Shown piece after piece: positions 1,966 through 57,985 of a stretch of 64,000 nucleotides of DNA. The stretch spans positions 5,963 to 69,962 of the forward strand of contig CAYGXQ010000001.1 of the NCBI GenBank assembly GCA_964354025.1. Reading direction: 5' to 3'. The notes below the pieces were generated by a model. It saw only the letters and a program-made list of their open reading frames with translations, was not told the origin of the DNA and did not search any database. The position numbers were made by a program, and so were the translations under genes. Position 1 is the first letter of the stretch, and each line of letters starts with the position of its first letter. This stretch comes from an uncultured Gammaproteobacteria bacterium. Lineage in GTDB: Bacteria > Patescibacteriota > Microgenomatia > 2-02-FULL-39-11.

Positions 1966-2040
1966 CGTAATAATCCGCCGGGAGGCGGATTAAACGTGGT
2001 TAGGAACGTTAATCGCAGAGCGATTTTACGTTCCACCACA

Positions 2041-13283: not shown

Positions 13284-14567
13284 TTAAGATAAATAATTAT
13301 TATCAATTACCCACTTATAAACAGGGATTACTTTTATAATCTGTTTCTTATCCGGTATTTCCTGCTCGGTATTATAAGTCAATATCAAACCGCTGGTTAC
13401 TTTTAATTCTTCCATTGCCTGCTTTAGACTGTCGATCTCTCTTTTCTTCGTCATTTCATCATGTAAATCCCAACATACCTGAATCAGCGCTTTTTTCCTG
13501 TTTGGCAGTTTAATCAAAAAATCAATTTCTTTATTATTCCCGGTTTTATAAAAATAGGTTTCACAACCTTTTCTTAATAACTCCAGAAAAACGCACTGTT
13601 CCATAATTCTTCCCTTATCTTCTGAAAATCTGAAGGAGACGGTATTTGCCAGTCCGCAATCAACGGAATATATCTTTTTGCTAGCTTTTTGTTGAAACTT
13701 GAGAGAATAGGAAAATTGAGACAGTTCAAACGTTAAAAATGCTTCATTGAAATAATTCAGATAATCAGAAATAGTTTCAAAAGAAAGGGAAAAAGTTTTT
13801 TTCAGTGATTCTATAGAAACAGTTTTTGCGGAGTTGGTAATAAGAAATATTCCCATTTTTTCCAGAGTATCTTTTTGCCGCACATCATATCTCATAACAA
13901 TATCTTTCTGGATGATATCAAAATAATATTGTTTTAATAGAGAAAGATTTCCTGTTTTGACTATTTCAGGAAATCCGCCGATTAACAGATATTCATCAAA
14001 ATTTTTAAGTAAAGTTTTTTCCTTGAGTATCAAATCCTTTTTACTTTCTACTTTTATTTCCTTAAAAGATAGAAATTCGCTGAAGGATAAAGGCAGTACC
14101 GAATATGAGATATGCCTGCCGGTAAGCAGAGTGGATAATTCCCGGCTTAACAATTTTGAAGAGGAACCGGTAAGAAAAATTTTATAATTCCCGCCGTCTC
14201 TTAATTTTCTCACCGCGCTTTCCCAATGATTCACGGCGTGGATTTCATCAAAGAAAAGATATTTCAGATTTTGACTGAAATATTCTTTCTGGACTGAGAT
14301 CAATTCTTCTATAACTTCAGGTGAATTATGGGAAACAAAATAAGGATCTTCAAAATTGATAAACAGAAAATCATCAGTGAGTTTTAATTTTTTGATCAGC
14401 AGTTTCAGAATTGATGACTTACCGCTTCTTCTGGGACCAATAATGTCGATCGCTTCCTTGCTTTTATAATCGATATGATCCACAACAGGACGATAATGTA
14501 GGTCTTCCTCATAAGCAGTCTTTTTCCAGAAGTCTATAATTTTGACCAATTGTTGGGTATCATACAT
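13284..14567 (-). CDS. AAA-superfamily ATPase with DUF4143, paralog 2
   Basis: Walker A GPRRSGKSSIL and Walker B LFFDEIH. The architecture matches the genes at 3572 and 61119. Confidence 0.75.
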   Translation of the reverse strand: MYDTQQLVKIIDFWKKTAYEEDLHYRPVVDHIDYKSKEAIDIIGPRRSGKSSILKLLIKKLKLTDDFLFINFEDPYFVSHNSPEVIEELISVQKEYFSQNLKYLFFDEIHAVNHWESAVRKLRDGGNYKIFLTGSSSKLLSRELSTLLTGRHISYSVLPLSFSEFLSFKEIKVESKKDLILKEKTLLKNFDEYLLIGGFPEIVKTGNLSLLKQYYFDIIQKDIVMRYDVRQKDTLEKMGIFLITNSAKTVSIESLKKTFSLSFETISDYLNYFNEAFLTFELSQFSYSLKFQQKASKKIYSVDCGLANTVSFRFSEDKGRIMEQCVFLELLRKGCETYFYKTGNNKEIDFLIKLPNRKKALIQVCWDLHDEMTKKREIDSLKQAMEELKVTSGLILTYNTEQEIPDKKQIIKVIPVYKWVIDNNYLS

Positions 14568-14626: not shown

Positions 14627-15922
14627 TTACTTCATCCGCTTCTGGAGGTCTGATTCGACTGTCTGGCGGTCTTCTCCGAATTTCTTTTGGGATTGGATTT
14701 TAAACTCCTCAACTTTCGCTTTGTCAGGTTTATTTTCCGGTAAATTTTGTTCAAAATTGACCGGTTCTTCTTTAATGGCGACATTTCCCTCCTGAAGCGT
14801 TTTGAGATAAGCCTGGTATTTTTTAAGGAGACAAAGTTTGTCGACCGTGATATTTTGGGAATGAAATTCGGGTGCAACTACCTGAGCCTCTTCCGTTGTT
14901 TGTCTGAAAGAGACAAGCGTACCGACTTTTGATAAAGCTCTTTTAAGCGGAAGAGACGCTTCAGAGATTTTATTGGTCGTCAGAGTAAGGTTAATGCCGT
15001 ATCTTCGGTTTTCCATTAATAAATCGCACATTAAGGTTGTTGGCCAGGCTGAAGCTTCATCTATATAAAGATTAACGATTGGATTGCCGGCGGAATGTTC
15101 CAAATAATTGATGAGCTTAAAAAGAAGGATAGTAGTAATGATTTTATTGACATCGCTATTTTTCTTGAGGTTTTTGAAATCAAAGAGAATGATTTGATAA
15201 TTTGAAAAAAGTGACGGAAAAGAAAAGGTTGATTTTGGTTGTCCCAGAATATAGCGCATGGATTTATCGGTCACAAACAGACCGAGTTTTGAAACGATAT
15301 AATCCAATACTTCTGATTTATGAAAGTCAGAGGTTTGGGCGACCTGCTTATTCCAGTAATTCAGGACAATAGGATCCTGCACTTTCGGTAAAATATTTTT
15401 TAAGTACGAAGCATCCGTCAAACAGCGGAGAAGTTCGACAAAAGAAGCATTTTCGTCGTACAGAATTGTTAAAATGGCATTTCTGACCGCGTGTTCGAAA
15501 CGCGGTCCGATGACGCCGGTATGTTTCGGGTCATACAAATCATACATGAGGCTGATCAGGATATTGGCGATTTGTTGTCTGTTTTTCTCGTCTTTTTCTT
15601 CAAACAGATTAAGGCCAACAGGAAAGTCATTATTGCCCAGGTCCAGATAAGCGATTTTTGGCAACGTTTCGTTATCAGCACTGGTAATAATTTCTTCAGC
15701 CAGATCGCCATACTGATCGAATACGACAATGGGACAGGAGGAACGGATATCCTGATTGATTAAATTAAAAAAATATCTGGAAACACCGACTCCGGGAATA
15801 CCGGTGACAAGGATATTTCTTGACCGGTCGTCCGGGGACAAAAAAAGATTTTTAAAAATTTCCAGACCGTTAGTTGGATTATTCATATATTTATATACTA
15901 ACAAATTGGTTTTATTATTCAA
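14627..15922 (-). CDS. P-loop NTPase of the HerA/FtsK/VirD4-like (DUF87-type) class, with an atypical Walker A
   Basis: Walker B LYIDEASAW. Walker A reads GIPGVGVS, with Val in place of the canonical Lys. No TM segments. Confidence 0.5.
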   Translation of the reverse strand: MNNKTNLLVYKYMNNPTNGLEIFKNLFLSPDDRSRNILVTGIPGVGVSRYFFNLINQDIRSSCPIVVFDQYGDLAEEIITSADNETLPKIAYLDLGNNDFPVGLNLFEEKDEKNRQQIANILISLMYDLYDPKHTGVIGPRFEHAVRNAILTILYDENASFVELLRCLTDASYLKNILPKVQDPIVLNYWNKQVAQTSDFHKSEVLDYIVSKLGLFVTDKSMRYILGQPKSTFSFPSLFSNYQIILFDFKNLKKNSDVNKIITTILLFKLINYLEHSAGNPIVNLYIDEASAWPTTLMCDLLMENRRYGINLTLTTNKISEASLPLKRALSKVGTLVSFRQTTEEAQVVAPEFHSQNITVDKLCLLKKYQAYLKTLQEGNVAIKEEPVNFEQNLPENKPDKAKVEEFKIQSQKKFGEDRQTVESDLQKRMK

Positions 15923-15990: not shown

Positions 15991-16281
15991 ATGGGAAGTG
16001 AGAATATTACGAATTTTCAATGGGACAAGGGAAATATCGGGAAAAACCTTAAACATAAAGTGATGGATGAAGAGACAGAACAGGTATTTTTTGATAAGAA
16101 TAAAGTAATTTCAGAAGATATCGCTCACTCGCAAAAAGAAAAAAGATATATCATTATCGGTAAAACGAAAGAAGGAAGGTTACTTTATACAGTATATACA
16201 TTTAGAGGAAACAAGATAAGAGTCGTTTCCTCAAGAGATATTAATAAAAAGGAGGTTCATTTTTATGAAAAAGCCGCTTAA
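15991..16281 (+). CDS. brnT: BrnT-family ribonuclease toxin
   Basis: N-terminal FQWDKGNIGKNLKHKV matches the BrnT signature (FxWDxxKxxxNxxKHGV). It overlaps the downstream antitoxin gene. Confidence 0.65.
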   Translation: MGSENITNFQWDKGNIGKNLKHKVMDEETEQVFFDKNKVISEDIAHSQKEKRYIIIGKTKEGRLLYTVYTFRGNKIRVVSSRDINKKEVHFYEKAA

Positions 16282-16531
16282 ATTGCCAAAATTTAAGAAT
16301 GAGGAGGAAGAAAGAAAATATTGGTGGAATCTGGACCTTTCCGGATATTTTGAACCGTCTGATTTCAAAAAAGGCGTGACATTTCCGAATCTTAAGCCAA
16401 CTACCACTCCCATTTCTATCCGTATTCCGAAGTACCTTTTAAATCGGGTCAAAGAAAAAGCAAATGAACTGGCGATGCCTTATCAGAGCCTGATTAAGCA
16501 GTATATTCAAAAAGGAGTGATGGCAAGATAA
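16265..16531 (+). CDS. brnA: BrnA-family antitoxin
   Basis: 88 aa with a C-terminal RHH-like segment (ISIRIPKYLLNRVKEKANE). It overlaps the brnT stop. Confidence 0.6.
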   Translation: MKKPLKLPKFKNEEEERKYWWNLDLSGYFEPSDFKKGVTFPNLKPTTTPISIRIPKYLLNRVKEKANELAMPYQSLIKQYIQKGVMAR

Positions 16532-25361: not shown

Positions 25362-26750
25362 ATGGCCGTACAACTTGACTACCTTGCTCCATCGGGCTGG
25401 CAGCCGGAGAATCCGGATGAAAATTACGTTTTGGCCCAGTATAAACTGGAACTGGCGGACGGGATTGATAAAAGCATGTTTGTCCAGGCGGCCGCCTCAA
25501 TCGCCGCCGAATCCTCCACCGGTACCTGGACCAAAGTGGATGCGGGACCGGATTCGGGTATAAAAGTCGCCGAGCAATATAAAGCGGTCGTTTATGACAT
25601 TGATGAGGCAAGCCGTCTTTTCAAAGTCGCATATAAAAAGGATCTCTTTGAAAGAGATAATCTCTCCGGTCTTTTGGCCGGGCCGGCCGGTAACATCGCC
25701 GGAATGAAAATGGTCAAGGCTATGCGGCTTTTTGATATCCGTTTCCCCAAAGTGATGGTTGAGGCTTTCCCTGGACCAAGATACGGCGTTTTGGGAGTGC
25801 GTGACCTTTTGAGCCAAAGCGATGAACAAAGACAAATGCCGATTTTAGGCACTGTCGCCAAACCGAAAGTCGGAAGAACTGCCGGTGAGCAGGCTATTTT
25901 GGCTAAAAGATTGTGGACGGCCGGCGGAGGACTTTACGATTTCATCAAAGATGACGAGAATCTGACCAGTTTGCCTTTTAATAAATTTGAAGACCGCGTC
26001 CGTTTAGTCCATCAAGTCCAAAAAGAGCTGGAAGGAAAAGGCGGCCCCAAAAAACTGTATCTGTGCAACATCACCCATTCCAATCTCGATGTGATGTTGG
26101 AAAGAGCCAACTTGATCAAAGAAAACAGCGGCAGATGTTTAATGATTGACGCAGTGGTTACCGGTTTTTCCGCAGTACATACCCTCAGGTTGAAAAATCC
26201 GGATTTGATCATCCATGCCCACCGGGCGATGCACGGTTTTTTGACGCGGGAAAGCGGTAAAGATTTTATGGGCAGCGGATCTTTGCAGGGATTCAGTATT
26301 TCCATGATTTTACTGGCAAAAATATACCGATTATTGGGAGTGGATTCCCTGCATTCCGGTTCCCCGAAGGCCAAAATGGAGGATTACGGTGAAAGCGGGG
26401 AAATCATGCGTTTACTGACAACGGAAATTACTCCGCCAAATTCCAATTATCATTCTTTAGGGCAAAACTGGTTTGGGAAGTATAAGGTTTGGCCGGTGGC
26501 CTCCGGCGGATTGCATCCGGGAGTGATGGATAAAGTGATGGAAGCCTTCAGCAAAGATTGTTATATCCAGCTCGGCGGCGGAGTTTTGGGGCACCCGCAA
26601 GGGATAGAACGCGGAGTGGAAGCGGCCATTGAGGCAAGAAAAACTGTAATGAAAGGAATGACAATCAATGATTATGTCCGGAAATACCCTGAGTCTGCCC
26701 TTTCTGCCGCCGTCAAACTTTGGGGTACCGAGCCGAAGATTGTTTACTGA
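25362..26750 (+). CDS. rbcL: Ribulose-1,5-bisphosphate carboxylase large-subunit homolog (form II/III-like)
   Basis: GGLYDFIKDDENL, the active-site Lys context MPILGTVAKPKVG, and HAHRAMHG. Size is 462 aa. Confidence 0.85.
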   Translation: MAVQLDYLAPSGWQPENPDENYVLAQYKLELADGIDKSMFVQAAASIAAESSTGTWTKVDAGPDSGIKVAEQYKAVVYDIDEASRLFKVAYKKDLFERDNLSGLLAGPAGNIAGMKMVKAMRLFDIRFPKVMVEAFPGPRYGVLGVRDLLSQSDEQRQMPILGTVAKPKVGRTAGEQAILAKRLWTAGGGLYDFIKDDENLTSLPFNKFEDRVRLVHQVQKELEGKGGPKKLYLCNITHSNLDVMLERANLIKENSGRCLMIDAVVTGFSAVHTLRLKNPDLIIHAHRAMHGFLTRESGKDFMGSGSLQGFSISMILLAKIYRLLGVDSLHSGSPKAKMEDYGESGEIMRLLTTEITPPNSNYHSLGQNWFGKYKVWPVASGGLHPGVMDKVMEAFSKDCYIQLGGGVLGHPQGIERGVEAAIEARKTVMKGMTINDYVRKYPESALSAAVKLWGTEPKIVY

Positions 26751-26778
26751 TAGAAGAGGAGAGTATAATATAAAATCT

Positions 26779-27987
26779 ATGGAAGAATTGGACAGGCTAT
26801 ATCCTTTGATTACGAGCGAAGACCTGACGAAGTACGCCAAACTTTTCCAAAGGGATTTGATCGCCGCTTTGCACAACCAACAGTCTTCGCTTCCTTCCAT
26901 CCTCAATCCCATCCATAAAATTTCAGCCAAAGAGGGTTTTGGAGTGGCTCTCTCCATCGGCGGGACCAACGGTTATGTCTCGGCCTTCCGGATCTCCCGG
27001 AAAAAGGTGATCACTTTCTTAAACCGGAAAATATTTAATCTGCCGGAAAAAACGACCAGGGAAGAACTTTTTCATTTAATCACTAAAAATGTTTTTGCGG
27101 TGGCCTCCGGCCGGAAGAAAAAATTCCCCATAGGTATCGGTCTGGCATACACGCTGAAGCCGGTGCTTCACCACCGCTTCATCGACGGCACTTTGATGTA
27201 TATGTCCAAGGGCAGGGAGATTGAGGGACTGGTGGGACTGCGGGTCGGACAGGAATATCATAAATTTTTAATCGATAAATACGGGATTGATACGGAAGTG
27301 GCGGTGGCCAACGATGCCATTTGTCTGCTTTTGGGCGGAGACGGAGTGGAAATTGCCGGAGTGGTTGGGACAGGACTTAACTTCGCCTATTGGGAAAAAA
27401 GGACGGCCATTGCCCCTTTGAAACTCGGGGAGCTTAATAATTTCTGCCAGGGGGATATCGCCGTCAACATTGAGTCAAATAATTTTGACAAGATAGAGGG
27501 GACGAAGTTAAGAAGCATTGTCGATAAAGAAAGTGAAGATGTTGGATATTCTCTGGCGGAAAAAGAAGCCTCAGGTGCTTATCTGTACCGGCTGTTTAAT
27601 GCCGGAAAAGTGAAACTTTTGGGCAAAGATTTTCCCGATCTGTCTTCCACCGATCAGCTGAACGATATTCTGACGGGCGCTTATATTTTTCCGAAAAATA
27701 TCAGTCAGGAAAAAATAAAAAAGGCCGGACTTTTTGCCCAGCGACTGTTACATCGGAGCGCCCAGATTACGGCCATCCAGTTATGCGGGATCTTCATGAA
27801 AATCGGCAAAACCAAAGGAATAGTATCGGTAGTTATGGAAGGCGGGATTTTTTGGAAAGCGAAAAACTACGCTTCCTTGGTTAACCTTTACGTCAATATG
27901 ATCTTGCCGGAAGTGATCCCTTCTTTTGCCCGGCTTTTTGGAAGCAGTCGTCGCGGAATGGCCATTCTGGCCAGCAGCTTGATCTAA
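26779..27987 (+). CDS. Hexokinase-family sugar kinase
   Basis: SIGGTN, VAVANDAICLLLG, VVGTGLNFAYWE and VNIESNNFD map onto the hexokinase phosphate-1, connect and adenosine motifs. The start is set at an ATG preceded by GAGGAG. Confidence 0.55.
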   Translation: MEELDRLYPLITSEDLTKYAKLFQRDLIAALHNQQSSLPSILNPIHKISAKEGFGVALSIGGTNGYVSAFRISRKKVITFLNRKIFNLPEKTTREELFHLITKNVFAVASGRKKKFPIGIGLAYTLKPVLHHRFIDGTLMYMSKGREIEGLVGLRVGQEYHKFLIDKYGIDTEVAVANDAICLLLGGDGVEIAGVVGTGLNFAYWEKRTAIAPLKLGELNNFCQGDIAVNIESNNFDKIEGTKLRSIVDKESEDVGYSLAEKEASGAYLYRLFNAGKVKLLGKDFPDLSSTDQLNDILTGAYIFPKNISQEKIKKAGLFAQRLLHRSAQITAIQLCGIFMKIGKTKGIVSVVMEGGIFWKAKNYASLVNLYVNMILPEVIPSFARLFGSSRRGMAILASSLI

Positions 27988-28205: not shown

Positions 28206-31200
28206 ATGAGTTCACCGGAACACGGACATCATGGAGGAGACGCCAAGCCGGATTTGATGAAAAGGCTGGCTCAATTTTTTAGGGCGCTTTTTCAAAATAA
28301 AGCGGAGAAAGAGATGGCTGAAAGGGCAGCCGCGGGAGAAATCGCTAAGCGCGATTACGCCAAACACGAAACTGAAGCAAAATGGGAAGAGGAAAGAAGA
28401 AAACGGGAAGAAAGAGACCGGACACGAAAATACCATGAAGCCAGAAGCGCGGAAGTGGCTGAAGCCGAGGTGGAAGTAACCAGACGGCAAAACGCACAGA
28501 AAGTGAGAGATAAGCTGCAAGATGTAATCAATGATACCTCCGGTCAAAACGATATCGAAGGTTCAAGATATCTAATGGCGGAGATAAGAGGAAATACACA
28601 TGTACAAGAAGCCTTGAAGCATCTAATTGACGAAAGTCCCAACGCTAGGGAAGTCATCAGGGAGTTTTTGACGCAAGATAAGCGGGTTCACGGGAGAAGT
28701 CGGGAACTGATCAAACTGACACAGGCGCTTTTGTATGAAGCCCAAAAAACCGGTGACATAGGCAACTTGGATTCTTTTATTACCCAAGTAAAAAAACAAA
28801 TTGACGGACTTTTGATAGATGAATATTCCGCGGCAAATAGAGCAGCTAGGGGAAGGAGGGGGCAGGGATTTAATACTTTCAAGGAATTCTTAGAGGAGGA
28901 ACCGGGAATCGTGATGACTGATGACGAACAAAAAGAACTACAAACGCCTGTTTATTATAAAGATAAAGATAATAAAGATACAGATAGAGTCAATGAAACG
29001 GAAACTACGGAGAAATGGAAAAGAATAGTTCAGGAAATGGTGACAGAACCTCGAGTTGGTACCGTCCGAGCTTTTACTGCTGCGAAAGTAGATAAATTTG
29101 CCGAGAATTATGGCGGCAATATTCCTGACAGTCAAGTTGTCATTGATAAGATGGTGGCGCCGCTTGACCGGGTTTGGGGCGAGCTTGAAAGGAAAGATGT
29201 TGCCGGACAGTTAACGAGTGAAGATTTAATCAAATACAGCCGACAATTAGTCAGGGAAGAATCGCAGATCCGGCCAACTGATGTGGCGCCGGGAAGTGAT
29301 GCTTATTTTGCCGCTTCTCGAGCAATGGGGGATTACATGAATAATAAATTGGAAATTTTAGCCAAGAAGCTGGAAGAAAAATTAAAAGCGGAGAAAGTGG
29401 TCATGAAAGAAGGGATTAACGATGAGACGGAATTTTTGGCGGAAATGGCCAAAAGAAAAGGCCGGATAGGAGATTTGTTTGAACTTAACCCGGCGATGGA
29501 AGAACTTTTATACGGATTGGATGATAAAAGCCGTAAGTTTCGGGATAGAGTTTTTATGAATATCCACTCCAGAGTTTTATCCGATCAACGGAATTCCTCA
29601 AACGATAACTTCGGCCTTTACGAGCGGGCGGATTTTTCGACTATAATTGATCTTTTAAAAGTAGGATTGGAAAAATTTAAGGTAATGGAAACAGGCAGAA
29701 GTTTGGGTGAAACTCTAAGCGACCATTACAATAATCTCAGCAACGCCATCCGCCAGTGCCGGGACATTGATTTTTGGGCCTCCCAACCGGCTGCCAATTC
29801 GGAGAACTTCAACAAATCTCTCGGCATGTTCCAAAATGAGTATGTCAAAGAAGCTCTTAACATCCCTGGGGTGATAGTGGCTTTCCGGGCTTTTGAGGAT
29901 AATCTTCGCAGTATTATCGCTTCCAACGACGGTTATCTGCCGCCGGCTCTCATGGAATACGATGCGACCAGCGGACGCTCTTTCTGGGATAACATGTCCC
30001 GGGCACAGGTTGAGAAAATGGTCGGCATGGGAGTGGTCCCGGGTATCAAAAGAGATGAAAGAAATTATTATCTTCATGTCAGAAATAAAGACGGCTATTC
30101 AGTCGAGATGGACTTTAAAAATCCTTTGAAAAAAGAGGATGTTTCCTCCGATGAGTATCTGATGTATATGACTTTGGCCAAAGGGATCGGAATGGCCACT
30201 GCCCGGTATCTGGAAATGATTGCCCAGACGAAAGTCCCGGGGTCGGACAATCCGACGCTGGGTTTGGATACTTTCCACAGTATGCCTTATGAGGGAATGG
30301 CGAAAGCGATGAACTATTTTAATGTCTATATTGAGAAATGGAAAATGGGTTCATATAAATACGGCCATCTCATGAATATGCTGATACCGGATGAAAAAAA
30401 TAGGATGACAATAGACCAAAATGATTCTACTTCAGCCATCCGCGCTTATATGGCTTACCAGGACGGCACTTTTGAGGAAAAATTCGGCACTGATGCCAAA
30501 AGATTTATTGACCTGACTAATTTCTCCGGCATTTCCTCGGCTATAGGCAAAGACACAACCTGGCGGCAATATGACATGACGCTTGACTGGGAGGACCGGA
30601 AAAAAGAATTTTTAGGCGGTCCGACGCAGCTGGTTTTAAGCAAAAGATACGCGGAGGAGAAAGTCAAAGACCATCTGGTAGTGGCCAAATATCGGGAGCA
30701 ATACCGGCAGGAACTAATCAGCCAAAAATCCGGACTGCCGACCAGCGGCGCCGGTTTTGATAAGCTTTGGCGGGAATACGGGAAAAATAGATATGCTTAT
30801 AACATTGAAAAGGAATGGGAAAAACTTAACGGGCTTGACCCTAAAAAAGGCAGACAGCATACGGCTTTATGGCATCAGACAGACCATTTGATAGGAGCAT
30901 ATAGAAATGCCTTGAAGGCGAGAGTCTGGGTAGAGATGGCCATGAGAAATCCTCTGGTGGTGGCTCACAGCTTAAAAGTCGACCTTCCTTTGGTTGGGGG
31001 AGAGAAACGGAAGAAACAGATGACTCTTCATACCATGCTGGTACAGGATATTTTAGGCATTCCGCCGGAAGATACGAAATACGGTGAGGAAGTCGGTAAA
31101 TCCGCTACCAGAAAATCACCGACAAAACAGCAAGAACAATACATGATTGACGTCATGAATCTGGAGTGGGATCTGGCGGCAGTACGGGAGAAAGCCATCA

Positions 31201-32180
31201 ATGGTGAAGATACAGAATATGTGAGAGATCTGACCGATAAGGATTTTAAGGTTATTGGAGATGAAAAAAGGAAAGAACAGGCTTTGGCTTACTGGAGAAG
31301 AGTGAAAAAAGTAATTTTAGGCAGCGAAGATTCGGCTGAAGCGGATAGATTGATTAAACATTTTGGTTTGGGTCTGATGGAAAATCAGGTGGATTACGAA
31401 TGGGATCATCATCACATCCATGAATTGATGACCGATAAAAAGGACGGCTTTTTGGATAAATTAGATAAACAGTTAAATCAAAGTCCGATGTTTACGATTG
31501 TCGGTTCAGACGGCCAACAGATCGAAATCCCTTTTCTTTTGAAAAAAGCGGTGAAGATGGAGCCGGAGTGGATTTTAGGAACTGACGATATGGTTTTTAA
31601 CAAAATGGATATCCTCAATCTCGGTTCAAGACAGCTGATAAGAAGAGGAGGCGATATTGCCGCCCACCAGGCCGGCGGCGATGCCGTTATTCAGTATCTC
31701 CTGTATGGTTTAACGCCAACGCCAAATAAGGAAGAAGCGGTGAAACTGCTTGCCAAACTTCGTGATGCCTACTCCGGCGATATGATTGAAATCGGTTGGT
31801 CAGTTGGATCCAATCTTGCTTACATGACTGACCGGCTTTATGCCTGGGATTGGAATCATTATGGGCAGTCGGTCGCGCAAAGAGATGTCTGGGGTACAAG
31901 AAGAGGAGTGGCCTCCTGGTTAGCCAATGAAAGACGGGAATGGTGGGATACTTTGGAACACGCTGATGTTTTTCCGCCGAACGCGCATTCTTACTTTTAT
32001 AACATCGATGATAAAGTAAATATCCATACAATGAGAAAATGGTGCCACGCGGATAATTCGGATGTCTGGAAAGAAATCATTGCCCTGGGAGTTTTACTGG
32101 CTTTGGCGATCACCATCTACCGTGCCTTCACCGCCCCAAGTGAAGAAGAAGAGGGCGGCGGTAAAGGCGGACACCATTAG
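28206..32180 (+). CDS. Giant hypothetical protein (1324 aa), with a charged coiled-coil-like N-terminus, one C-terminal TM helix, and an EEEEGGGKGGHH tail
   Basis: A single long ORF with CDS-like composition; no catalytic motif recognised. Convergent with the VirB6-like gene. Confidence 0.6.
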   Translation: MSSPEHGHHGGDAKPDLMKRLAQFFRALFQNKAEKEMAERAAAGEIAKRDYAKHETEAKWEEERRKREERDRTRKYHEARSAEVAEAEVEVTRRQNAQKVRDKLQDVINDTSGQNDIEGSRYLMAEIRGNTHVQEALKHLIDESPNAREVIREFLTQDKRVHGRSRELIKLTQALLYEAQKTGDIGNLDSFITQVKKQIDGLLIDEYSAANRAARGRRGQGFNTFKEFLEEEPGIVMTDDEQKELQTPVYYKDKDNKDTDRVNETETTEKWKRIVQEMVTEPRVGTVRAFTAAKVDKFAENYGGNIPDSQVVIDKMVAPLDRVWGELERKDVAGQLTSEDLIKYSRQLVREESQIRPTDVAPGSDAYFAASRAMGDYMNNKLEILAKKLEEKLKAEKVVMKEGINDETEFLAEMAKRKGRIGDLFELNPAMEELLYGLDDKSRKFRDRVFMNIHSRVLSDQRNSSNDNFGLYERADFSTIIDLLKVGLEKFKVMETGRSLGETLSDHYNNLSNAIRQCRDIDFWASQPAANSENFNKSLGMFQNEYVKEALNIPGVIVAFRAFEDNLRSIIASNDGYLPPALMEYDATSGRSFWDNMSRAQVEKMVGMGVVPGIKRDERNYYLHVRNKDGYSVEMDFKNPLKKEDVSSDEYLMYMTLAKGIGMATARYLEMIAQTKVPGSDNPTLGLDTFHSMPYEGMAKAMNYFNVYIEKWKMGSYKYGHLMNMLIPDEKNRMTIDQNDSTSAIRAYMAYQDGTFEEKFGTDAKRFIDLTNFSGISSAIGKDTTWRQYDMTLDWEDRKKEFLGGPTQLVLSKRYAEEKVKDHLVVAKYREQYRQELISQKSGLPTSGAGFDKLWREYGKNRYAYNIEKEWEKLNGLDPKKGRQHTALWHQTDHLIGAYRNALKARVWVEMAMRNPLVVAHSLKVDLPLVGGEKRKKQMTLHTMLVQDILGIPPEDTKYGEEVGKSATRKSPTKQQEQYMIDVMNLEWDLAAVREKAINGEDTEYVRDLTDKDFKVIGDEKRKEQALAYWRRVKKVILGSEDSAEADRLIKHFGLGLMENQVDYEWDHHHIHELMTDKKDGFLDKLDKQLNQSPMFTIVGSDGQQIEIPFLLKKAVKMEPEWILGTDDMVFNKMDILNLGSRQLIRRGGDIAAHQAGGDAVIQYLLYGLTPTPNKEEAVKLLAKLRDAYSGDMIEIGWSVGSNLAYMTDRLYAWDWNHYGQSVAQRDVWGTRRGVASWLANERREWWDTLEHADVFPPNAHSYFYNIDDKVNIHTMRKWCHADNSDVWKEIIALGVLLALAITIYRAFTAPSEEEEGGGKGGHH

Positions 32181-32196
32181 TTACTACTAGTTACTA

Positions 32197-33726
32197 CTAC
32201 TTGTGAGTTCCTTTATCTCCACCTCCGAAGATACCGCTGGCCATCATTTTCAACTGGCCCATATAGTAGAACTGGCTGGCCGCGCCCATGGCCGTCTGGA
32301 AAGAACCGGTCAAAGGCGCCATGATGGTGCCCGGAGAAACAGGCAGGGCCGGTTTAGGCGCGAACATCTTTTTGATCGAGGCAATCAAAGTCGGGGCCAT
32401 GAAAAGGACACCGATGCCGATAAAAGCGGAAAAAACAGGAGGAGTCCCTATGCCCAAAAGAGGCGGTTGCCAGGCCGTGTTTTCCGGATTTTGGGAAGTC
32501 AAAAACATGGCAAACATCAAGACGGCGGCGGTGGCCGGGAAGACGACCAGATTAGCAATGACATTTAAAATCCAGTCGGTAAAAGCGGATTTGCCGGGGA
32601 CAGCCTCCGCCAGAAGCTGGATCGGGCCAATGATCAAAGAAATCATCACCTGGATATAGGAATTCACCAGAAGAAGTACCAGTCTGATGAAAGTAAAAAG
32701 CAGTCCCAGAGCCAAAATCAATATAATAATAGCTGATGGAGCAGCAGCGACAGCTGCTGTGCCCAAACCGATAGTAACGAGACCGGGAATCATAGAAATG
32801 AGTCCAATTACAACAGAGATACCGCCCAGTTGACCTCCATAACCTTTGATAAAATCGTCTACAGATCGGAAGCCGCCGCTGAAAACCGATCCGGCTAAAG
32901 TGCCTAACCCGCCGGTCATATACTGGCTTTGCAGTTCCGCCACTTTTGAAGCAAAACCGCCGCCCATGCCCTGAGCCATGACAGAGATCAGGATAGCCAT
33001 GACCAGATACATCATGTCAATCAGAAAACCGACGATCGGATAAGAAAGGGTGATCAGGACTAAAGTCAGAATGATTTTTGGTAAAGCCGCCTGAAGAGAG
33101 ATGACTGTTTTCGGATCAATTTTCATCCGGAAGATGATCATGAAGCCGATGGCCACCATGACGATAATCAAGATAGCGTAAGCAATATTTCGGGAAGTTT
33201 TCCAAAGAGAAAGAAGCGGGGTCATGGCGGCAAAACCGATCCCTTGGGCAAAAACAGGCTTGATAAAGCCGGCGTTGGCCAGATAGTCACGGGCATAATA
33301 GGCAAAACTGGCCGGAGGATTAGCGTAAATGGATGCTATAACTGTGCTGATATTTCCCAGAGCCGTTTGCTGCGGATTACAATTGTTATCATCAGGAAGG
33401 CAGACTAACAAACTAGTAATAGCGGCCACTTGGACATTAGCGATAAAGATGCTATGAGGGACCGCAGAAATATCAGTTTGTCCTTCTTTGGCTTTTTCCT
33501 CAGTAATATTTAAGTCGTTGACGATTTCCTTCAAACCCATCCTCCAATATCTTGTAGCGGTAGCGGCCGTAGCTTCTTTGGGGAATGAGAAGAATGGAAT
33601 TGCGGCAATAAATATCAAAAGTAAAAATCTGTAGATTTTGGGCAGACGGAGCATATTTTTATTATTCTGCTTTTTGACGGTGGTGTCAATCCTGTATTGT
33701 GTTATTGTCATCCCGACCGATTCCAC
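32197..33726 (-). CDS. VirB6/TrbL-like polytopic membrane protein (putative type-IV-secretion channel component)
   Basis: Signal/TM followed by an extracytoplasmic segment, then 8 or more TM helices and a Gly-rich tail. It sits directly downstream of six VirB2/TrbC-like genes. The true start is probably the ATG at 33711. Confidence 0.45.
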   Translation of the reverse strand: MESVGMTITQYRIDTTVKKQNNKNMLRLPKIYRFLLLIFIAAIPFFSFPKEATAATATRYWRMGLKEIVNDLNITEEKAKEGQTDISAVPHSIFIANVQVAAITSLLVCLPDDNNCNPQQTALGNISTVIASIYANPPASFAYYARDYLANAGFIKPVFAQGIGFAAMTPLLSLWKTSRNIAYAILIIVMVAIGFMIIFRMKIDPKTVISLQAALPKIILTLVLITLSYPIVGFLIDMMYLVMAILISVMAQGMGGGFASKVAELQSQYMTGGLGTLAGSVFSGGFRSVDDFIKGYGGQLGGISVVIGLISMIPGLVTIGLGTAAVAAAPSAIIILILALGLLFTFIRLVLLLVNSYIQVMISLIIGPIQLLAEAVPGKSAFTDWILNVIANLVVFPATAAVLMFAMFLTSQNPENTAWQPPLLGIGTPPVFSAFIGIGVLFMAPTLIASIKKMFAPKPALPVSPGTIMAPLTGSFQTAMGAASQFYYMGQLKMMASGIFGGGDKGTHK

Positions 33727-33815
33727 GATAGTGGATGAGTGGAGGGATCTTCCGCGTTCCGTTAGATGGAAGATTCCTCGACGCGGCCATTATCATGGCC
33801 TTACTCGGAATGACA
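33706..33815. repeat. MITE-like element copy E2 (TGTCATCCCGAC...ACTCGGAATGACA)
   Basis: Same 45-nt core as the copy at 21638. It overlaps the 5' end of the VirB6-like gene. Confidence 0.5.
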
Positions 33816-33816
33816 C

Positions 33817-34137
33817 TCAAGGTGAAGAAGGAATTTCGAAAATCAGGACATTGACGCCGGTGAAGTATTGGATGATTTTAAAAATCAGAAAAGCGACGGC
33901 CATCAGAGCGATGCCGGCAATGGCATAAGTCATCGTTTGTTGGGCGGAAGCGGTTGCTTTATGGTCACCGCCTGAAGTGAGATACTTGAAGCCGCCGATG
34001 ATAAGCATAACCATCAGAGCCAGCCCGGCTAAACTGACGGCGACAGTCAAAATATTGGAAAAAACAATTTCCAGACATTTGAGGGTGGGAACATCAACTC
34101 CGCCCACCGTCTGCATGCAGGAAGTCCAGTCTTTCAT
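33817..34137 (-). CDS. TrbC/VirB2-like small membrane protein (pilin-like), paralog 6 of 6
   Basis: TM1 - SGGD(H/K) motif - amphipathic helix - TM2 architecture, shared by all six tandem genes. Confidence 0.5.
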   Translation of the reverse strand: MKDWTSCMQTVGGVDVPTLKCLEIVFSNILTVAVSLAGLALMVMLIIGGFKYLTSGGDHKATASAQQTMTYAIAGIALMAVAFLIFKIIQYFTGVNVLIFEIPSSP

Positions 34138-34156
34138 GAGGGTTTAAATCTTCTGT

Positions 34157-34537
34157 TTAATAACCCGACGGCAACTTGATACCTCTCAGGATCGAGATAC
34201 CGAAGAATTGTTCGATGACGATCATCAGTCCCCAAGCGGCAAAGACGATGAAAAGGCCGAGGATGGCCGCCTGGATTTTGTGCTGGGCGGCTTCCACTTT
34301 ACTCTTGTCTCCACCGGAAAGGATCCATTCAACACCGGCGATAAGAAGATAGATGAAAGTCGCCAGAGCAGCCATTACAAGGATAAGACCGACCGCACCG
34401 CTGACTAATTTACCCAAATCGCCTGTTCTCAGATTTGAAGGACTAGGGATGATAATAGGAATGTCTTCAGCGAAAGCGGTTGTTTTTGAGAACAAAACCA
34501 GCGATAAAGTAGAAAGACCGGCGATAATTTTTTTCAT
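34157..34537 (-). CDS. TrbC/VirB2-like small membrane protein, paralog 5
   Basis: N-terminal signal peptide; LSGGDKSKVEAAQHKIQAAILGLFIVFAAWG. Confidence 0.5.
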   Translation of the reverse strand: MKKIIAGLSTLSLVLFSKTTAFAEDIPIIIPSPSNLRTGDLGKLVSGAVGLILVMAALATFIYLLIAGVEWILSGGDKSKVEAAQHKIQAAILGLFIVFAAWGLMIVIEQFFGISILRGIKLPSGY

Positions 34538-34596
34538 AAAATTTTTCCTCCCCTTATAAAATTATTATGACAATGTTTTGACTTGTTTGTCAAGCT

Positions 34597-34953
34597 CTAA
34601 AATAAAGTCGGCAGTTTTATCTGAAAACCGCCGCCTCCGCCAAGAGGCGAAATGCCCAAGAATTGCAAAACAACAACATACAATCCCCAGGATGCAAAAA
34701 GAATGAAGAGTCCGACGATGGCATTGGTAATTCTTTTTTGCGCTCCTTCCAGCGCTGCCTTATCTCCGCCTGAAGAAATCCATTCTAAACCGCCCTGGAG
34801 GAGATTGACAAAAGCCCAGATAGAGCCGGCGGTAAGCATGACGCCAACCAAAGCGGCAAAAAATTTGGCAAAAATCTCCGGCGCTTTTTCTGGATTTTGG
34901 CCGGAAATACCGGTGACAACTGGATTGGTGATTGGTGAGATTTGATAAATCAT
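34597..34953 (-). CDS. TrbC/VirB2-like small membrane protein, paralog 4
   Basis: ISSGGDKAALEGAQKRITNAIVGLFILFASWG. Confidence 0.5.
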   Translation of the reverse strand: MIYQISPITNPVVTGISGQNPEKAPEIFAKFFAALVGVMLTAGSIWAFVNLLQGGLEWISSGGDKAALEGAQKRITNAIVGLFILFASWGLYVVVLQFLGISPLGGGGGFQIKLPTLF

Positions 34954-34955
34954 AG

Positions 34956-35369
34956 TTAAAATCCGATATTCTGTAAAACTGCTCCCGGATTTAAGATGTT
35001 CAAACCGATGATTTTGCCGATCAATCCGGTAATTACCCAGGCGGAAACAACAATGATCAAGCCGATTAGGGCATTAACGATTTTATTACGGGCTTCTTCA
35101 AGATTATGCTTGTCGCCGCCCGCATTCATCCAGCCGTAACCGGCGATAATTATCTGGAAGATAAACCAGAGCGCGGCAACTATTGTTAAGAAACCTATGA
35201 TGCCGCTGAGAGCTTTGTTTAACTGGTTGCCGACTTTGGCGCTGTCGCCAATACCCAAATTGCACATCGCTTTTGCGATCTCTCCGAAACCATCACCGCA
35301 ACCCAAACCTTTGCTTGAAGGCGGAAGCGGGGCGGCCGCGTAGACAGCACTGATTAATTTATTTATCAT
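34956..35369 (-). CDS. TrbC/VirB2-like small membrane protein, paralog 3
   Basis: MNAGGDKHNLEEARNKIVNALIGLIIVVSAW. Confidence 0.5.
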   Translation of the reverse strand: MINKLISAVYAAAPLPPSSKGLGCGDGFGEIAKAMCNLGIGDSAKVGNQLNKALSGIIGFLTIVAALWFIFQIIIAGYGWMNAGGDKHNLEEARNKIVNALIGLIIVVSAWVITGLIGKIIGLNILNPGAVLQNIGF

Positions 35370-35740
35370 TGTAATTTCGGTTGTAAAATAGCCGTCGGAT
35401 CTTTGAAAAACAATATACCGAATACCGCCGCCAGCAAAAATGAAGCAACGATAATCACCAATCCCAAGAGAGTTTGCCAGATCCGGTCCAAGGCTTTGGT
35501 GACTTTTTTCGCGTCGCCGCCGGCCGACATATAATCAAAGCCGGCAATAATCAGATTGACGAATGAATAAAGTCCGGCGACAACAAAAACCAGTTTAAGG
35601 ATGGAATTCAGTAAAACCATGATACCGGTTAGCTCTCCGCCTGATCCAATCCCTTCAGGCATATAGGGAGGACGGGAAATGCAACCGATCGGGTCATTCG
35701 GATCGCAGGCGGCCAGAAGGGTGGTTAAAAGATAAATCAT
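35366..35740 (-). CDS. TrbC/VirB2-like small membrane protein, paralog 2
   Basis: MSAGGDAKKVTKALDRIWQTLLGLVIIVASF. Confidence 0.5.
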   Translation of the reverse strand: MIYLLTTLLAACDPNDPIGCISRPPYMPEGIGSGGELTGIMVLLNSILKLVFVVAGLYSFVNLIIAGFDYMSAGGDAKKVTKALDRIWQTLLGLVIIVASFLLAAVFGILFFKDPTAILQPKLQ

Positions 35741-35744
35741 ATTG

Positions 35745-36053
35745 CTAGCCTAAAATACCGCTTAGAGCTCCTCCAGTGATGAAATTTATTATTTGTAAAA
35801 TCCAATAGGCTCCAAACATAATAGTAAAGCCGATGATGGCAAAAGTCAAAATATTTTTACGCGATTCGGCTGCGTGTTCGTCGCCGCCGGCGTTCATAAT
35901 CACCCCTAAACCGGTAATGACGATGATAAAAAAGAAAATGACTCCGCCGACGATCAATATTTTCGGCAGCAGCGAGGACACCAGTGAGGAAAGGGTCGGA
36001 AAATTTTTGGCAAGCGGCCACTCTTTACTTATGTCCACCTGTGCGAGAAGCAT
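35745..36053 (-). CDS. TrbC/VirB2-like small membrane protein, paralog 1 (first gene of the array)
   Basis: MNAGGDEHAAESRKNILTFAIIGFTIMFGAY. Confidence 0.5.
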   Translation of the reverse strand: MLLAQVDISKEWPLAKNFPTLSSLVSSLLPKILIVGGVIFFFIIVITGLGVIMNAGGDEHAAESRKNILTFAIIGFTIMFGAYWILQIINFITGGALSGILG

Positions 36054-36150
36054 ACCTTCAGTCTAAGGAATCGGAGGCGGATTTGTCAAATGGCGGGAGA
36101 AGAACTAAAATAAGAGCATGAATTTATTAGTTTTGACCGACTTATAAGAT

Positions 36151-36699
36151 ATGTTCGACGAAAAATTGCTAGTCAAAGACATTTTGGCGGGAAACGAAAA
36201 AACCTTAAGGTTTTTTTACCGGCATTTCAAAAATCCCCTTATGAGTTATATAAAAAACAAAGTCGGTAATCCCCAGGATGCCGAAGAAATTATGCAGGAC
36301 GTCCTTCTTTCGACCATTGAAGCTTTCCGGGATTTCACTTTCCGCTGCCGGATTTTTACCTATATTTGCAGTATTGCCAATCACAAAGTGATTGATTATT
36401 ACCGCCGGAAGAAAATAAAAAACATCGTTTTCTCCCGGATCAAAGACGTGGAGCCGTTGATAATTACCCTCTTAAGCCCGGAAACTACTTTCGACGACGA
36501 GCTTTTGAAGGAAAAAATAACCCTGACATTTGGCCGGTTGACACCGCTGTACCGTAAAATTTTAACCTTGAAATATATTGACGGCTATTCCGTTTCCGAA
36601 ATTGCCCGGATGCTCTCCCTTTCTTTCAAAAGCGTAGAGAGCCATCTTTTCCGGGCCAGACGAACGTTTGCGATAATTTTTTCCTATGAAAGAAGATAA
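36151..36699 (+). CDS. ECF-type RNA polymerase sigma-70 family factor
   Basis: Region 2 (FYRHF...DAEEIMQDVLL) and region 4 (YSVSEIARMLSLSFKSVESHLFRARR). Divergent from the pilin array. Confidence 0.8.
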   Translation: MFDEKLLVKDILAGNEKTLRFFYRHFKNPLMSYIKNKVGNPQDAEEIMQDVLLSTIEAFRDFTFRCRIFTYICSIANHKVIDYYRRKKIKNIVFSRIKDVEPLIITLLSPETTFDDELLKEKITLTFGRLTPLYRKILTLKYIDGYSVSEIARMLSLSFKSVESHLFRARRTFAIIFSYERR

Positions 36700-36919
36700 A
36701 ACCTATCAGTTGCTGGTTCAAAGAATGCATGAGGTAGCCCTGTTGCCGACACAAAACGTCGGTTTCTTCACTCCTTTATATAAAAAAATAGCGCCAAAAC
36801 TGAAATTCTCACCCTGGAAAAGCGCCACAGTCATCTCCGTTACGGCCGCCGTCTGTCTGTATATTTTGTTTGGAGCAATTTTGGTTAGATTGGCATCTCT
36901 TCTTCAATTCGGTTTTTAA
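36686..36919 (+). CDS. Putative membrane-anchored anti-sigma factor
   Basis: 77 aa with a single TM, overlapping the sigma factor stop codon. The call rests on position and architecture alone. Confidence 0.3.
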   Translation: MKEDKTYQLLVQRMHEVALLPTQNVGFFTPLYKKIAPKLKFSPWKSATVISVTAAVCLYILFGAILVRLASLLQFGF

Positions 36920-52817: not shown

Positions 52818-53576
52818 TTAATTCCTTATAAAAATATTTTTATTTTTTAAATATGTTTTTACATCAGGAACCGTTAATTCTCCAAAGTGGAAAAGGGAAG
52901 CCGCCAACGCCGCATCCGCTTTTCCTTCTTCAAAAATTTCTGCAAAATCAGACAATTTACCGGCACCGCCTGAGGCAATTACTGGGATTGAGAGGTTGCT
53001 TGATACGAGCCGTGTCAATTCCAGATCAAAGCCTTTTTTTGTCCCGTCAGAGTCAATGCTGGTTAAAAGTATTTCTCCGGCACCCAATGCTGCCGCTTTT
53101 TTGGTCCAGTCAAAGGCGGAAATACCGGTATCGGTTCGGCCGCCATTAATAAAGACGTGCCACTCGTCAGGACCGGTTTTTCTGGCATCAAGTGATAAAA
53201 CCACACACTGACTGCCGAAAATATTGGCGCAGTCGCTGATCAGTTTCGGACGATTGAAAGCACCGGTATTCACAGAGACTTTATCAGCCCCGGTACGAAG
53301 AATAATCCGCATATCTTCAATAGTCCGCACTCCACCACCGACGGAAAAAGGGATAGTAACCTCAAGAGCGGTTTTTTTCACTACCTCCAGTAAAATATCC
53401 CTATTTTCCACCGTGGCGGTGATATCCAAAAAGACCAATTCGTCGGCCCCCTGCCGGTCGTAAACTTTGGCTAGCTTGACCGGATCGCCGGCATCACGAA
53501 AAGTCTCAAAGCATATGCCTTTGACGACTTTACCTTCAGTCATATCCAGACAGGGAATAATCCGTTTAGTCAACAT
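52818..53576 (-). CDS. hisF: Imidazole glycerol phosphate synthase cyclase subunit
   Basis: RIIPCLDMTEGKVVKG, SVGGGVRT and ASGGAG motifs. The start is set at the internal ATG (MLTKRIIPC). Confidence 0.9.
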   Translation of the reverse strand: MLTKRIIPCLDMTEGKVVKGICFETFRDAGDPVKLAKVYDRQGADELVFLDITATVENRDILLEVVKKTALEVTIPFSVGGGVRTIEDMRIILRTGADKVSVNTGAFNRPKLISDCANIFGSQCVVLSLDARKTGPDEWHVFINGGRTDTGISAFDWTKKAAALGAGEILLTSIDSDGTKKGFDLELTRLVSSNLSIPVIASGGAGKLSDFAEIFEEGKADAALAASLFHFGELTVPDVKTYLKNKNIFIRN

Positions 53577-54207
53577 AATAGTTTCTCCAATTCTTGAGTA
53601 ATTGAAAACCAGCTTTACCGCTTTTTTCCGGGTGAAATTGGGTTGCGACGATATTATTTTTAACAATAATACTGGCGAACTTTTCTCCATAATCAGTTTC
53701 GCCGGCAATAATTGATTTTTCTGCCGGTTGGCAATAATAACTGTTCACGAAATAAAAAAAACTTTTATCCCGGATAGAAAAAAATAATTGTTTTATTGCC
53801 TGCCTTGTCGGCAGGCAGGTTAAATTGTTAAATTGTTGCATTGCTACCTGGTTCCAGCCGATCTGCGGTATCTTCCTCTCCTTGCGGAATTTTTTGACTT
53901 GGCCTTTGAGCAGACCCAAACAATTGACATTGCCTTCTTCACTTTTGTCAAACAAAAGCTGCATCCCTAAACAAATTCCCAAAACCGGTTTACCTCGTTT
54001 AACTTCCTCTTTAATGACTTTCGTTAAACCTTTTTTCTCCAAGTTTTTCATGCCTTCTCCGGCCGCCCCGACTCCGGGGAAAACCAGGGCTTTGGCCTTG
54101 GTAAGCACAAGAGAATCGCCGGAAATTTCCGTTGGAATTCCCAGTTTGGTAAAAGCATTAGACACGCTGGCCAGGTTACCCAGGCCATAATCAATAATGG
54201 CGATCAT
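53566..54207 (-). CDS. hisH: Imidazole glycerol phosphate synthase glutaminase subunit
   Basis: MIAIIDYGLGNL, the catalytic GICLGMQ, and HPEKS. Confidence 0.9.
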   Translation of the reverse strand: MIAIIDYGLGNLASVSNAFTKLGIPTEISGDSLVLTKAKALVFPGVGAAGEGMKNLEKKGLTKVIKEEVKRGKPVLGICLGMQLLFDKSEEGNVNCLGLLKGQVKKFRKERKIPQIGWNQVAMQQFNNLTCLPTRQAIKQLFFSIRDKSFFYFVNSYYCQPAEKSIIAGETDYGEKFASIIVKNNIVATQFHPEKSGKAGFQLLKNWRNYYVD

Positions 54208-54797
54208 AAAACTCCTTTCGTCGAAGGAATGTCGCTGCTTACCCGCTGGTCAATTTCTAAGGCCTTGCGGATGGCCCGGGCACAGGCTTTGAAAATCGCC
54301 TCTATTTGGTGATGATCGTTGCGTCCGTTTTCCACTTTGATGAATAAATTGATTTTGGCATTTTGGGCAAAAGCCTCCCAAAAGTCATAAACCAGTTCCG
54401 TCGGCAGATCGCCGACTTTTTCCCGGGTAAATTGACAATTAAAATTAAAGGCATACCGGCCGGAAAAATCGACTGCCGCCGTTGCCAGGACTTCATCCAT
54501 CGGCAGGATAAAAAAACCATAACGGTTGACGCCTTTTTTATCACCTAAGGCTTTTTGAAAAGCCTGGCCCAATAAAATGCCTATATCTTCAACTGTGTGG
54601 TGTTCGTCAACTTCGATGTCACCAATAGCTTTGATATTTAAATCGAACAAACCGTGTTTGGCAAAAAGATCGAGCATGTGATTTAGAAATCCAACCGGAG
54701 TCTTGATCATCCTCTTTCCGCAACCATCGATATTTAAAACAATTGAAATATCGGTTTCTCCAGTCTTACGTGTAATTTCCGCGATTCTTGGTTTCAT
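54204..54797 (-). CDS. hisB: Imidazoleglycerol-phosphate dehydratase
   Basis: RKTGETDISIVLNIDG and the two His-rich motifs DEHHTVED and RNDHHQIEA. Confidence 0.9.
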   Translation of the reverse strand: MKPRIAEITRKTGETDISIVLNIDGCGKRMIKTPVGFLNHMLDLFAKHGLFDLNIKAIGDIEVDEHHTVEDIGILLGQAFQKALGDKKGVNRYGFFILPMDEVLATAAVDFSGRYAFNFNCQFTREKVGDLPTELVYDFWEAFAQNAKINLFIKVENGRNDHHQIEAIFKACARAIRKALEIDQRVSSDIPSTKGVL

Positions 54798-56640: not shown

Positions 56641-56665
56641 ATGTAACAGATAGCATGCATCCGTG

Positions 56666-57970: not shown

Positions 57971-57985
57971 AATTTACTCCTTAAA

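Follow-up and report, generated by a model that had tools for sequence, protein, structure and literature searches.

A six-pilin array beside a candidate VirB6 in a Microgenomatia genome, probably part of a chromosomal patescibacterial type IV secretion system

Patescibacteria are believed to rely on bacterial hosts, and no type IV secretion system (T4SS) other than theirs is known to be required for growth, as seen in Ca. Southlakia epibionticum. In strain ML1 the system is encoded by the chromosomal, essential cluster SEML1_0006-0019 (Wang et al. 2023, PMC10633639), in which six pilins of family PF18895 lie beside a VirB6 inferred from structure; the cluster also encodes PrgI and VirB4 as well as hydrolases, and it lacks a relaxase (PMC10633639). 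A survey of 3,035 Patescibacteria genomes (Quinonero-Coronel et al. 2025, PMC12102498) described 441 VirB2 arrays of 2-11 genes, mostly from Microgenomatia and Saccharimonadia and averaging ~25% identity, and placed the pilin genes away from virB4 in 813 of 1,948 assemblies. Microgenomatia yielded few VirB6 homologs, 'suggesting extreme sequence divergence', and pilin variability was put forward as a possible aid to host-range adaptation (PMC12102498). A 2025 review repeats this picture and deems pilus formation plausible (PMC12857230). Here we describe a 64-kb stretch of contig CAYGXQ010000001.1 (hereafter, the window) in which six tandem pilin-like genes are followed by the gene for a polytopic membrane protein. 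A preliminary description had treated this block as unexplained; since pilin arrays of this type are documented in both publications (PMC10633639, PMC12102498), the six-fold expansion with no ATPase next to it is in fact a known pattern. We conclude that the block is probably the pilin and VirB6-like sub-cluster of a chromosomal, non-conjugative Patescibacteria T4SS in a Gottesmanbacteria-like (Microgenomatia) host. Much of this is rediscovery of a published system; the new points are a candidate Microgenomatia VirB6, a fixed set of six subunits and a conserved giant neighbor.

The array comprises six co-oriented minus-strand genes (33817-36053) encoding proteins of 102-137 aa, as first proposed and as confirmed by our check of the open reading frames (ORFs) of the window. 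In order of transcription these are p1 (35745-36053, 102 aa), p2 (35366-35740, 124 aa), p3 (34956-35369, 137 aa), p4 (34597-34953, 118 aa), p5 (34157-34537, 126 aa) and p6 (33817-34137, 106 aa). Hydropathy analysis gave each protein two transmembrane-length hydrophobic helices flanking a polar loop of ~20 residues that bears an invariant GGD, and G..GGD..G was invariant across an alignment of all six. Likewise, all six matched Pfam PF18895 (T4SS_pilin), with E-values running from 1.7e-10 (p3) through 6.1e-8 (p6), 7.1e-6 (p5), 1.1e-5 (p2) and 1.2e-4 (p4) to 1.8e-3 (p1). Relative to the gathering score of this model (26.6 bits), p3 (41.3) and p6 (33.1) scored above, p5 (26.5) and p2 (25.9) fell at most 1 bit short, and p4 (22.6) and p1 (18.8) scored below, both being clear paralogs in the six-protein alignment. 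Taken together, the PF18895 matches and the alignment of the six proteins far exceed chance. The TrbC model PF04956, originally put forward as the family to search, weakly matched p2 (E 0.085). With NCBIfam NF045849, which describes a pilin-like conjugal transfer protein of a Mycoplasma integrative and conjugative element (ICE), the p3 protein reached 39.8 of the 40 bits required. This near-match hints that VirB2-like hairpin proteins occur in monoderm systems of the mating-pair formation class MPF_FATA, and it bears on the published question of whether Patescibacteria pilins were co-opted from diderm T4SSs.

The idea that each array protein carries a signal peptide or first transmembrane segment held in part. 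Two transmembrane segments were present throughout, but a canonical Sec signal peptide was found only in p5, whose N-terminus reads MKKIIAGLSTLSLVLFSKTTAFA/ED, the other five having polar or very short N-terminal leaders. Very short leaders of the form M-x3-6-[VIL][FY]A/[QE], or more broadly M-x3-6-[VIL][FYL]-A before Q/E, occur in many pilin orthologs (loci L007-L059). Other orthologs at the same position have a complete Sec signal peptide that closes with this motif, which points to a processing site that is unusual or vestigial.

We next compared pilins by array position across 29 genomes whose arrays have six genes. Searched for in another genome, the closest counterpart of a pilin occupied the same position in 98, 100, 91, 54, 90 and 93% of cases for p1 to p6, respectively; only p4 and p5 could be confused, p4 being closest to p5 at 45% identity. 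Orthologs shared 44-60% identity, the p5 subfamily being the most conserved (60%), compared to 24-36% between array positions; within a genome, pilin identity was ~30%. The N-terminal Cys pair of p6 is kept in 18 of 29 orthologs. These results show that the six pilins are ancient, ordered and individually conserved orthologous subfamilies, which is new here, and the duplications that gave rise to them evidently predate the divergence of the sampled genomes. Such fixed positional orthology argues against models of recent amplification or antigenic variation, and the fixed order of the six subfamilies constrains models by favoring non-redundant roles, for example with some as major and others as minor subunits of a single heteromeric filament.

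Pattern matching together with conservation placed a predicted sigma-70-type promoter upstream of p1 (TTGACA-18-TAGACT, 36060-36089, minus strand). Further sites of this type lie between p4 and p5, as an internal p5-p6 promoter (TTGACA-18-CATAAT with TG, 34564-34593, minus strand; 11 of 12 consensus matches), and ahead of the polytopic gene (TTGACA-17-AATAAT, 33661-33689, minus strand), where relatives have conserved equivalents. At the p1 site, 23 of 37 loci had the strict motif, whose background frequency was 0.022 per kb. Among the 29 genomes, TTGACA-N17/18-TAnAnT sites were conserved upstream of p1 in 18, upstream of p5 in 21 (scored as at least 10 of 12 consensus matches) and in 22 upstream of the polytopic gene, while upstream of p2-p4, where intergenic gaps measure only -4 to +3 nt, sigma-70-type sites were seen in at most 2. 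A terminator-like hairpin with a 10-bp stem and a T-rich tail was picked up by pattern match at the 3' end of p4 (34609-34633, minus strand). Taken together, the conserved sites show the array to be organized as two putative transcription units, p1-p4 and p5-p6, under conserved housekeeping sigma-70-type promoters, with the polytopic gene under a predicted promoter of its own. For both p1 and the polytopic gene (ATG at 33654), the -10 hexamer ends 6 nt before the ATG, an arrangement kept in many relatives; with so short a distance, leaderless mRNAs are predicted, or near-leaderless in the case of p1.

Six individually conserved subfamilies behind strong promoters suit abundant structural subunits, and this bears on whether the array proteins are pilus subunits at all. 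They could instead be membrane-embedded or accessory parts of a Gram-positive-type translocon, or serve some other membrane role, a reading that we consider unlikely. It would fit the general lack of pili in monoderm T4SSs (PMC12102498), the score of p3 just under the cutoff of the Mycoplasma ICE model, the scarcity of canonical leaders, and the result that an alignment of the six pilins showed no similarity to TrwL by hhalign. The link between PF18895 and TrbC, weak here, is stronger in the S. epibionticum pilins, and the pilus formation deemed plausible in the review (PMC12857230) likewise speaks for pilins.

The polytopic gene follows p6 directly (32197-33654, minus strand). Its longest ORF (32197-33726) encodes 509 aa; the probable start is M25 (33654), yielding 485 aa, and is very probable because it coincides with the start of database protein P0001 and because the conserved -10 hexamer ends 6 nt upstream of it. 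The protein has ~7-8 hydrophobic segments, modeled as long helices by AlphaFold2 (AF2), where at least five transmembrane helices were taken to define a polytopic protein. The AF2 model (pLDDT 72, pTM 0.59) best resembles TrwI/VirB6 and DotA, and we count its fold as VirB6-like; the seven top Foldseek matches in the PDB were all TrwI/VirB6 chains of plasmid R388 (E 3e-3 to 0.55, probability 0.85-1.0). At the level of sequence, one of 49 family members matched PF04610 (E 3.5e-4), and the top hhalign segment pairs an invariant P-x4-F-x2-W of the polytopic and TrwI families in an alignment that is statistically not significant. The initial 'VirB6/TrbL-like' label is upheld by the predicted fold and not by the PF04610 search; since that search was negative, the label derives from structure and synteny, and the protein is not a demonstrated member of PF04610. 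Judged from its predicted fold and its position in the cluster, it is probably a highly diverged VirB6-like platform protein, and it is the only candidate for the VirB6 role that we identified in the T4SS clusters of relatives. Such a VirB6 would complete the parts list of Microgenomatia, a class that is among those best covered by the published survey.

The polytopic protein has 471 relatives in a scan of species-representative genomes, which, where a lineage is given, come from Gottesman-, Roizman- or Woesebacteria or other Patescibacteria; close homologs with a stated source are all from Gottesmanbacteria or Microgenomates metagenome-assembled genomes. Using hidden Markov models built from the window's own proteins, we annotated 80 relative loci, 52 of them with a full downstream flank. 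Some 35 loci keep one order: HMG-CoA reductase, Yip1, a 77-aa ORF and an extracytoplasmic function (ECF) sigma factor, then, divergently, 5-8 pilins and the polytopic gene, with a giant ORF convergent to it. Roizmanbacteria-type loci have only 1-2 pilins beside the polytopic gene. In 17 of the 52 full-flank loci, the DNA 2-9 kb downstream of the polytopic gene encodes core parts of a T4SS: PrgI/VirB3 (PF12666) and a TrsD-like protein (TraC_F_IV), and/or an ATPase resembling type IV coupling proteins (T4CPs). A divergent 725-aa T4CP-like ATPase is present in eleven of these 17 loci. A VirB4 of 610-680 aa (P-loop_TraG, AAA_10, CagE_TrbE_VirB) appeared in the four loci whose flanks reach that far, in answer to the earlier suggestion that synteny be searched for a co-occurring VirB4, and one flank extends to an 854-aa CHAP-domain protein. 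With core genes this close in 17 of 52 relatives, the block belongs to a T4SS gene neighborhood.

Within the window itself, Pfam scans of ORFs of at least 150 aa detected no VirB4, no VirB11 and no VirD4-type ATPase with an intact P-loop, and no relaxase family was seen in family scans of the window ORFs. The absence of an intact T4SS ATPase near the array was accordingly described correctly from the start, and it extends to the whole 64 kb. Its interpretation as a trait of the apparatus did not survive the comparison with relatives: it reflects how this genome is arranged, the T4SS neighborhood being apparently split here. The one candidate ATPase (14627-15922, minus strand) is a 431-aa T4CP/HerA-like ATPase-domain protein with weak TraD/HerA matches and a match to phrog_5156 (E 5e-27). 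It aligns to residues 340-684 of the relatives' 725-aa T4CP-like ATPase (30% identity, E 8e-41) and has no counterpart of the N-terminal half. Its Walker A motif reads GIPGVGVS compared to GxxGxGKS, so that the P-loop is indeed degenerate and its lysine lost. We rejected this ORF as motor of the system, given that it matches a T4CP-like paralog and not VirB4, is truncated, lacks the lysine, and sits, 17 kb from the block, beside a toxin-antitoxin pair. Its neighbors are that BrnT/BrnA pair (15991-16531, plus strand), a NUDIX gene and two tRNAs, and it could be what remains of a mobile element or phage.

The block as a whole was likewise considered as a mobile element or ICE, and this was rejected: the flanks are housekeeping genes, the gene order is kept across loci whose polytopic proteins share only 30-60% identity with that of the window, and G+C content is unremarkable. 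Besides enolase and a class II aminoacyl-tRNA synthetase, the window encodes form II/III RuBisCO, a complete mevalonate pathway and a histidine operon.

On the far side of the array, across a 97-bp spacer, an ECF-type sigma factor (36151-36699, plus strand) and a 77-aa single-pass membrane protein (36686-36919, plus strand) are encoded divergently from p1, as the preliminary description had it. The sigma factor matched PF04542, PF08281 and PF07638, with Sigma70_r2, r4_2 and ECF domains present, and scored 80.6 bits with TIGR02937 (cutoff 42.9). The 77-aa ORF shares 14 nt with the end of the sigma gene, and its product has a C-terminal transmembrane helix at residues ~49-67; no Pfam or NCBIfam family matched it and no anti-sigma domain was recognizable, so that an anti-sigma role, suggested by the translational overlap and the single helix, is a possibility. 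This ORF follows the sigma gene in 33 loci, and in the window it is followed by a gene for a Yip1-domain protein. In ~30 loci the sigma, 77-aa ORF, Yip1 and HMG-CoA reductase genes lie on one strand as an operon, tightly packed with mevalonate genes. In 11 relatives, ~0.9-1.3 kb separate the sigma gene from p1, the annotated case (L001) being a polyprenyl synthase gene, and Roizmanbacteria-type loci have no sigma gene. No ECF-type promoter was found before the pilin genes, where the conserved sites are of the housekeeping type TTGACA-N17/18-TAnAnT. The sigma and putative anti-sigma genes, first described as part of the module, are therefore better seen as the probable start of an adjacent mevalonate-side operon that includes Yip1; the sigma factor is probably a neighbor outside the module, linked to the array by adjacency within one lineage.

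These observations also bear on the proposal that six pilins and a channel form a self-contained surface-filament or attachment apparatus that has no ATPase and is run by the divergent sigma/anti-sigma pair. The 64 kb free of a T4SS ATPase, together with the adjoining sigma, 77-aa and pilin genes in ~30 genomes, would be expected of such an apparatus. We nevertheless hold it to be very improbable, in view of the PrgI-TrsD and/or T4CP-like ATPase genes within 2-9 kb in 17 of 52 relatives, with VirB4 beyond, the housekeeping promoters of the pilins, and the sigma factor's separation from the array in some relatives and absence from others. What endures of the proposal is that use in conjugation is disfavored, a point on which our reading as a T4SS sub-cluster agrees.

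Directly downstream of the polytopic gene, and convergent to it, lies a giant ORF of 1324 aa (28206-32180, plus strand), predicted to be all-alpha, with ~31% charged residues, a single C-terminal transmembrane helix and an acidic/Gly/His tail, SEEEEGGGKGGHH. It had no match in Pfam, NCBIfam or PHROG, and a word search returned five database homologs. Residues 125-1324 gave a poor AF2 model (pLDDT 53.5), and the Foldseek matches of that model, generic alpha-solenoids, were rejected for this reason. At the same position, 36 loci have an ORF that measures 700 aa or more, with ~25-33% charged residues; most measure 1150-1420 aa, a few being shortened by contig ends or sequence gaps. These giant ORFs form at least two sequence groups, related only over the C-terminal ~200 aa (hhalign probability 91.7%). 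The giant ORF is fast-evolving, with a conserved C-terminal transmembrane helix and tail; across the loci it is in every case convergent to the VirB6-like gene, and as a conserved flank of the block it is new here.

Membership in these groups matters for a further alternative, in which the locus is decaying or split, having kept its pilin/VirB6 part and lost the motor, with the 431-aa ATPase fragment as a relic. Relatives with the window-like giant-ORF group show no core genes within 10 kb, except in locus L024, where PrgI and TrsD lie ~7-8 kb downstream; core genes are also absent from the window, and the 431-aa ORF lacks its N-terminal half and Walker A lysine, as a relic might. All seven ORFs of the block are intact, however, with conserved promoters and gene order and with orthologs that are evidently constrained. 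The 431-aa ORF, 17 kb off beside the toxin-antitoxin pair, resembles a phage family, and distance between pilin genes and virB4 is common in the surveyed assemblies (813 of 1,948; PMC12102498). Decay of the locus is in our judgment highly unlikely.

Several results weigh against assigning the block to a T4SS. Searches of the window with the VirB4, PrgI, TrsD and CHAP proteins of the relatives (tblastn, jackhmmer) found none of them, and with these parts missing from the window, a working machine in its genome is putative. Four of the six pilins score under the PF18895 gathering threshold, and most are without a canonical signal peptide. The polytopic protein had no Pfam or NCBIfam match at E<=1; two profiles of its family found no match among PDB sequences; and a comparison by hhalign with the TrwI family, aligned from 33 sequences, returned a probability of 0.1%. 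The scores for its fold are moderate (template modeling scores 0.27/0.42, Foldseek E 3e-3, on a model of pLDDT 72). Finally, no pilus of this family has been visualized in any Patescibacterium in the literature cited here. We nonetheless favor the assignment to a chromosomal T4SS, for which the array, the predicted fold and the relatives' core genes speak jointly.

The families assigned, the similarity in fold, the synteny and the conserved promoters are demonstrated; how such a system might assemble, form a filament and function we infer as follows. Hairpin pilins would be made constitutively from strong primary-sigma promoters, and would be inserted and stored as hairpins in the cytoplasmic membrane. 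They would then be extracted and polymerized on the VirB6-like platform with VirB4 as the driving ATPase, in concert with PrgI/VirB3 and TrsD as well as a wall hydrolase of the CHAP type, all presumably encoded outside the window. The product would be a heteromeric filament or conduit serving contact with the host bacterium, not plasmid transfer. A fuller version of this model would combine three elements: the 485-aa family as the diverged VirB6 of Microgenomatia; the products of p1-p4 and p5-p6 as non-redundant subunits of a heteromeric filament, not host-range or antigenic variants; and the giant protein as a lineage-specific T4SS component or substrate. We put this combination forward tentatively, as one possible account.

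Other features of the window were noted. A near-complete histidine biosynthesis operon (52818-58861, minus strand), which is unusual for Patescibacteria, ends beside tRNA-His and encodes HisG, HisD, a class I/II aminotransferase, a haloacid dehalogenase (HAD) phosphatase, an imidazole glycerol phosphate dehydratase, a HisH-type amidotransferase and HisA/F. Descriptions of Patescibacteria generally portray them as unable to make amino acids. The gene for a form II/III-type RuBisCO large subunit precedes a hexokinase-family gene (25362-27987, plus strand), their longest ORFs overlapping by 83 nt. Three paralogous AAA_14/DUF4143 ATPase genes are present (3572-5002 and 13284-14567, minus strand; 61119-62423, plus strand), and a fourth gene of this type breaks the pilin array region in the relative locus L033. 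Two Fic/DOC-domain proteins are encoded at 6333-7205 (plus strand) and 59592-60644 (minus strand). The tmRNA gene (1557-1965, plus strand; tag ANKSADEAEAILAFRANQSYQFAFAPSLSA) is followed by a gene for a ComF-like protein with a double zinc ribbon and a phosphoribosyltransferase domain (1996-2709, plus strand).

Among described systems, the S. epibionticum cluster resembles the block in its six tandem PF18895 pilins adjoining a VirB6-like polytopic protein, in its chromosomal location without a relaxase, and in the genes that go with it, for PrgI, VirB4, a protein resembling TrsD and wall hydrolases, as is the case in some relatives of the window. It also contains large proteins of unassigned role that are essential there and recall the giant ORF; essentiality has been shown for S. 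epibionticum only. The VirB6-like protein of that species is an 'extended' one of 1,088 aa encoded divergently from the pilins, whereas that of the window has 485 aa and is co-oriented directly after them. Its parts are all contiguous, whereas in the window a 1,324-aa tail-anchored ORF comes next and the motor genes are outside the 64 kb. The conjugation machine of R388 (Trw; TrwL/VirB2 and TrwI/VirB6, PDB 7o3v and 8rtd) likewise combines a hairpin pilin with a polytopic platform, and TrwI is the best structural match. It differs as a diderm machine of class MPF_T that has a single pilin and a relaxase, a tip made of VirB5 and a core in the outer membrane, and it has no sequence-profile similarity to the window proteins. 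Multiple tandem VirB2 paralogs within one T4SS are also a feature of Bartonella Trw and the Anaplasma T4SS, where tandem amplification and variation are thought to be antigenic or related to the host surface (PMC12102498); in contrast, the duplications seen here appear to be older than the divergence of the 29 sampled genomes. The published VirB2 arrays of Patescibacteria (PMC12102498) are alike in their divergent pilins, here at ~30% identity, which often do not lie beside virB4, and to that description the present locus adds orthologous subfamilies in fixed order and a candidate with a VirB6-like fold.

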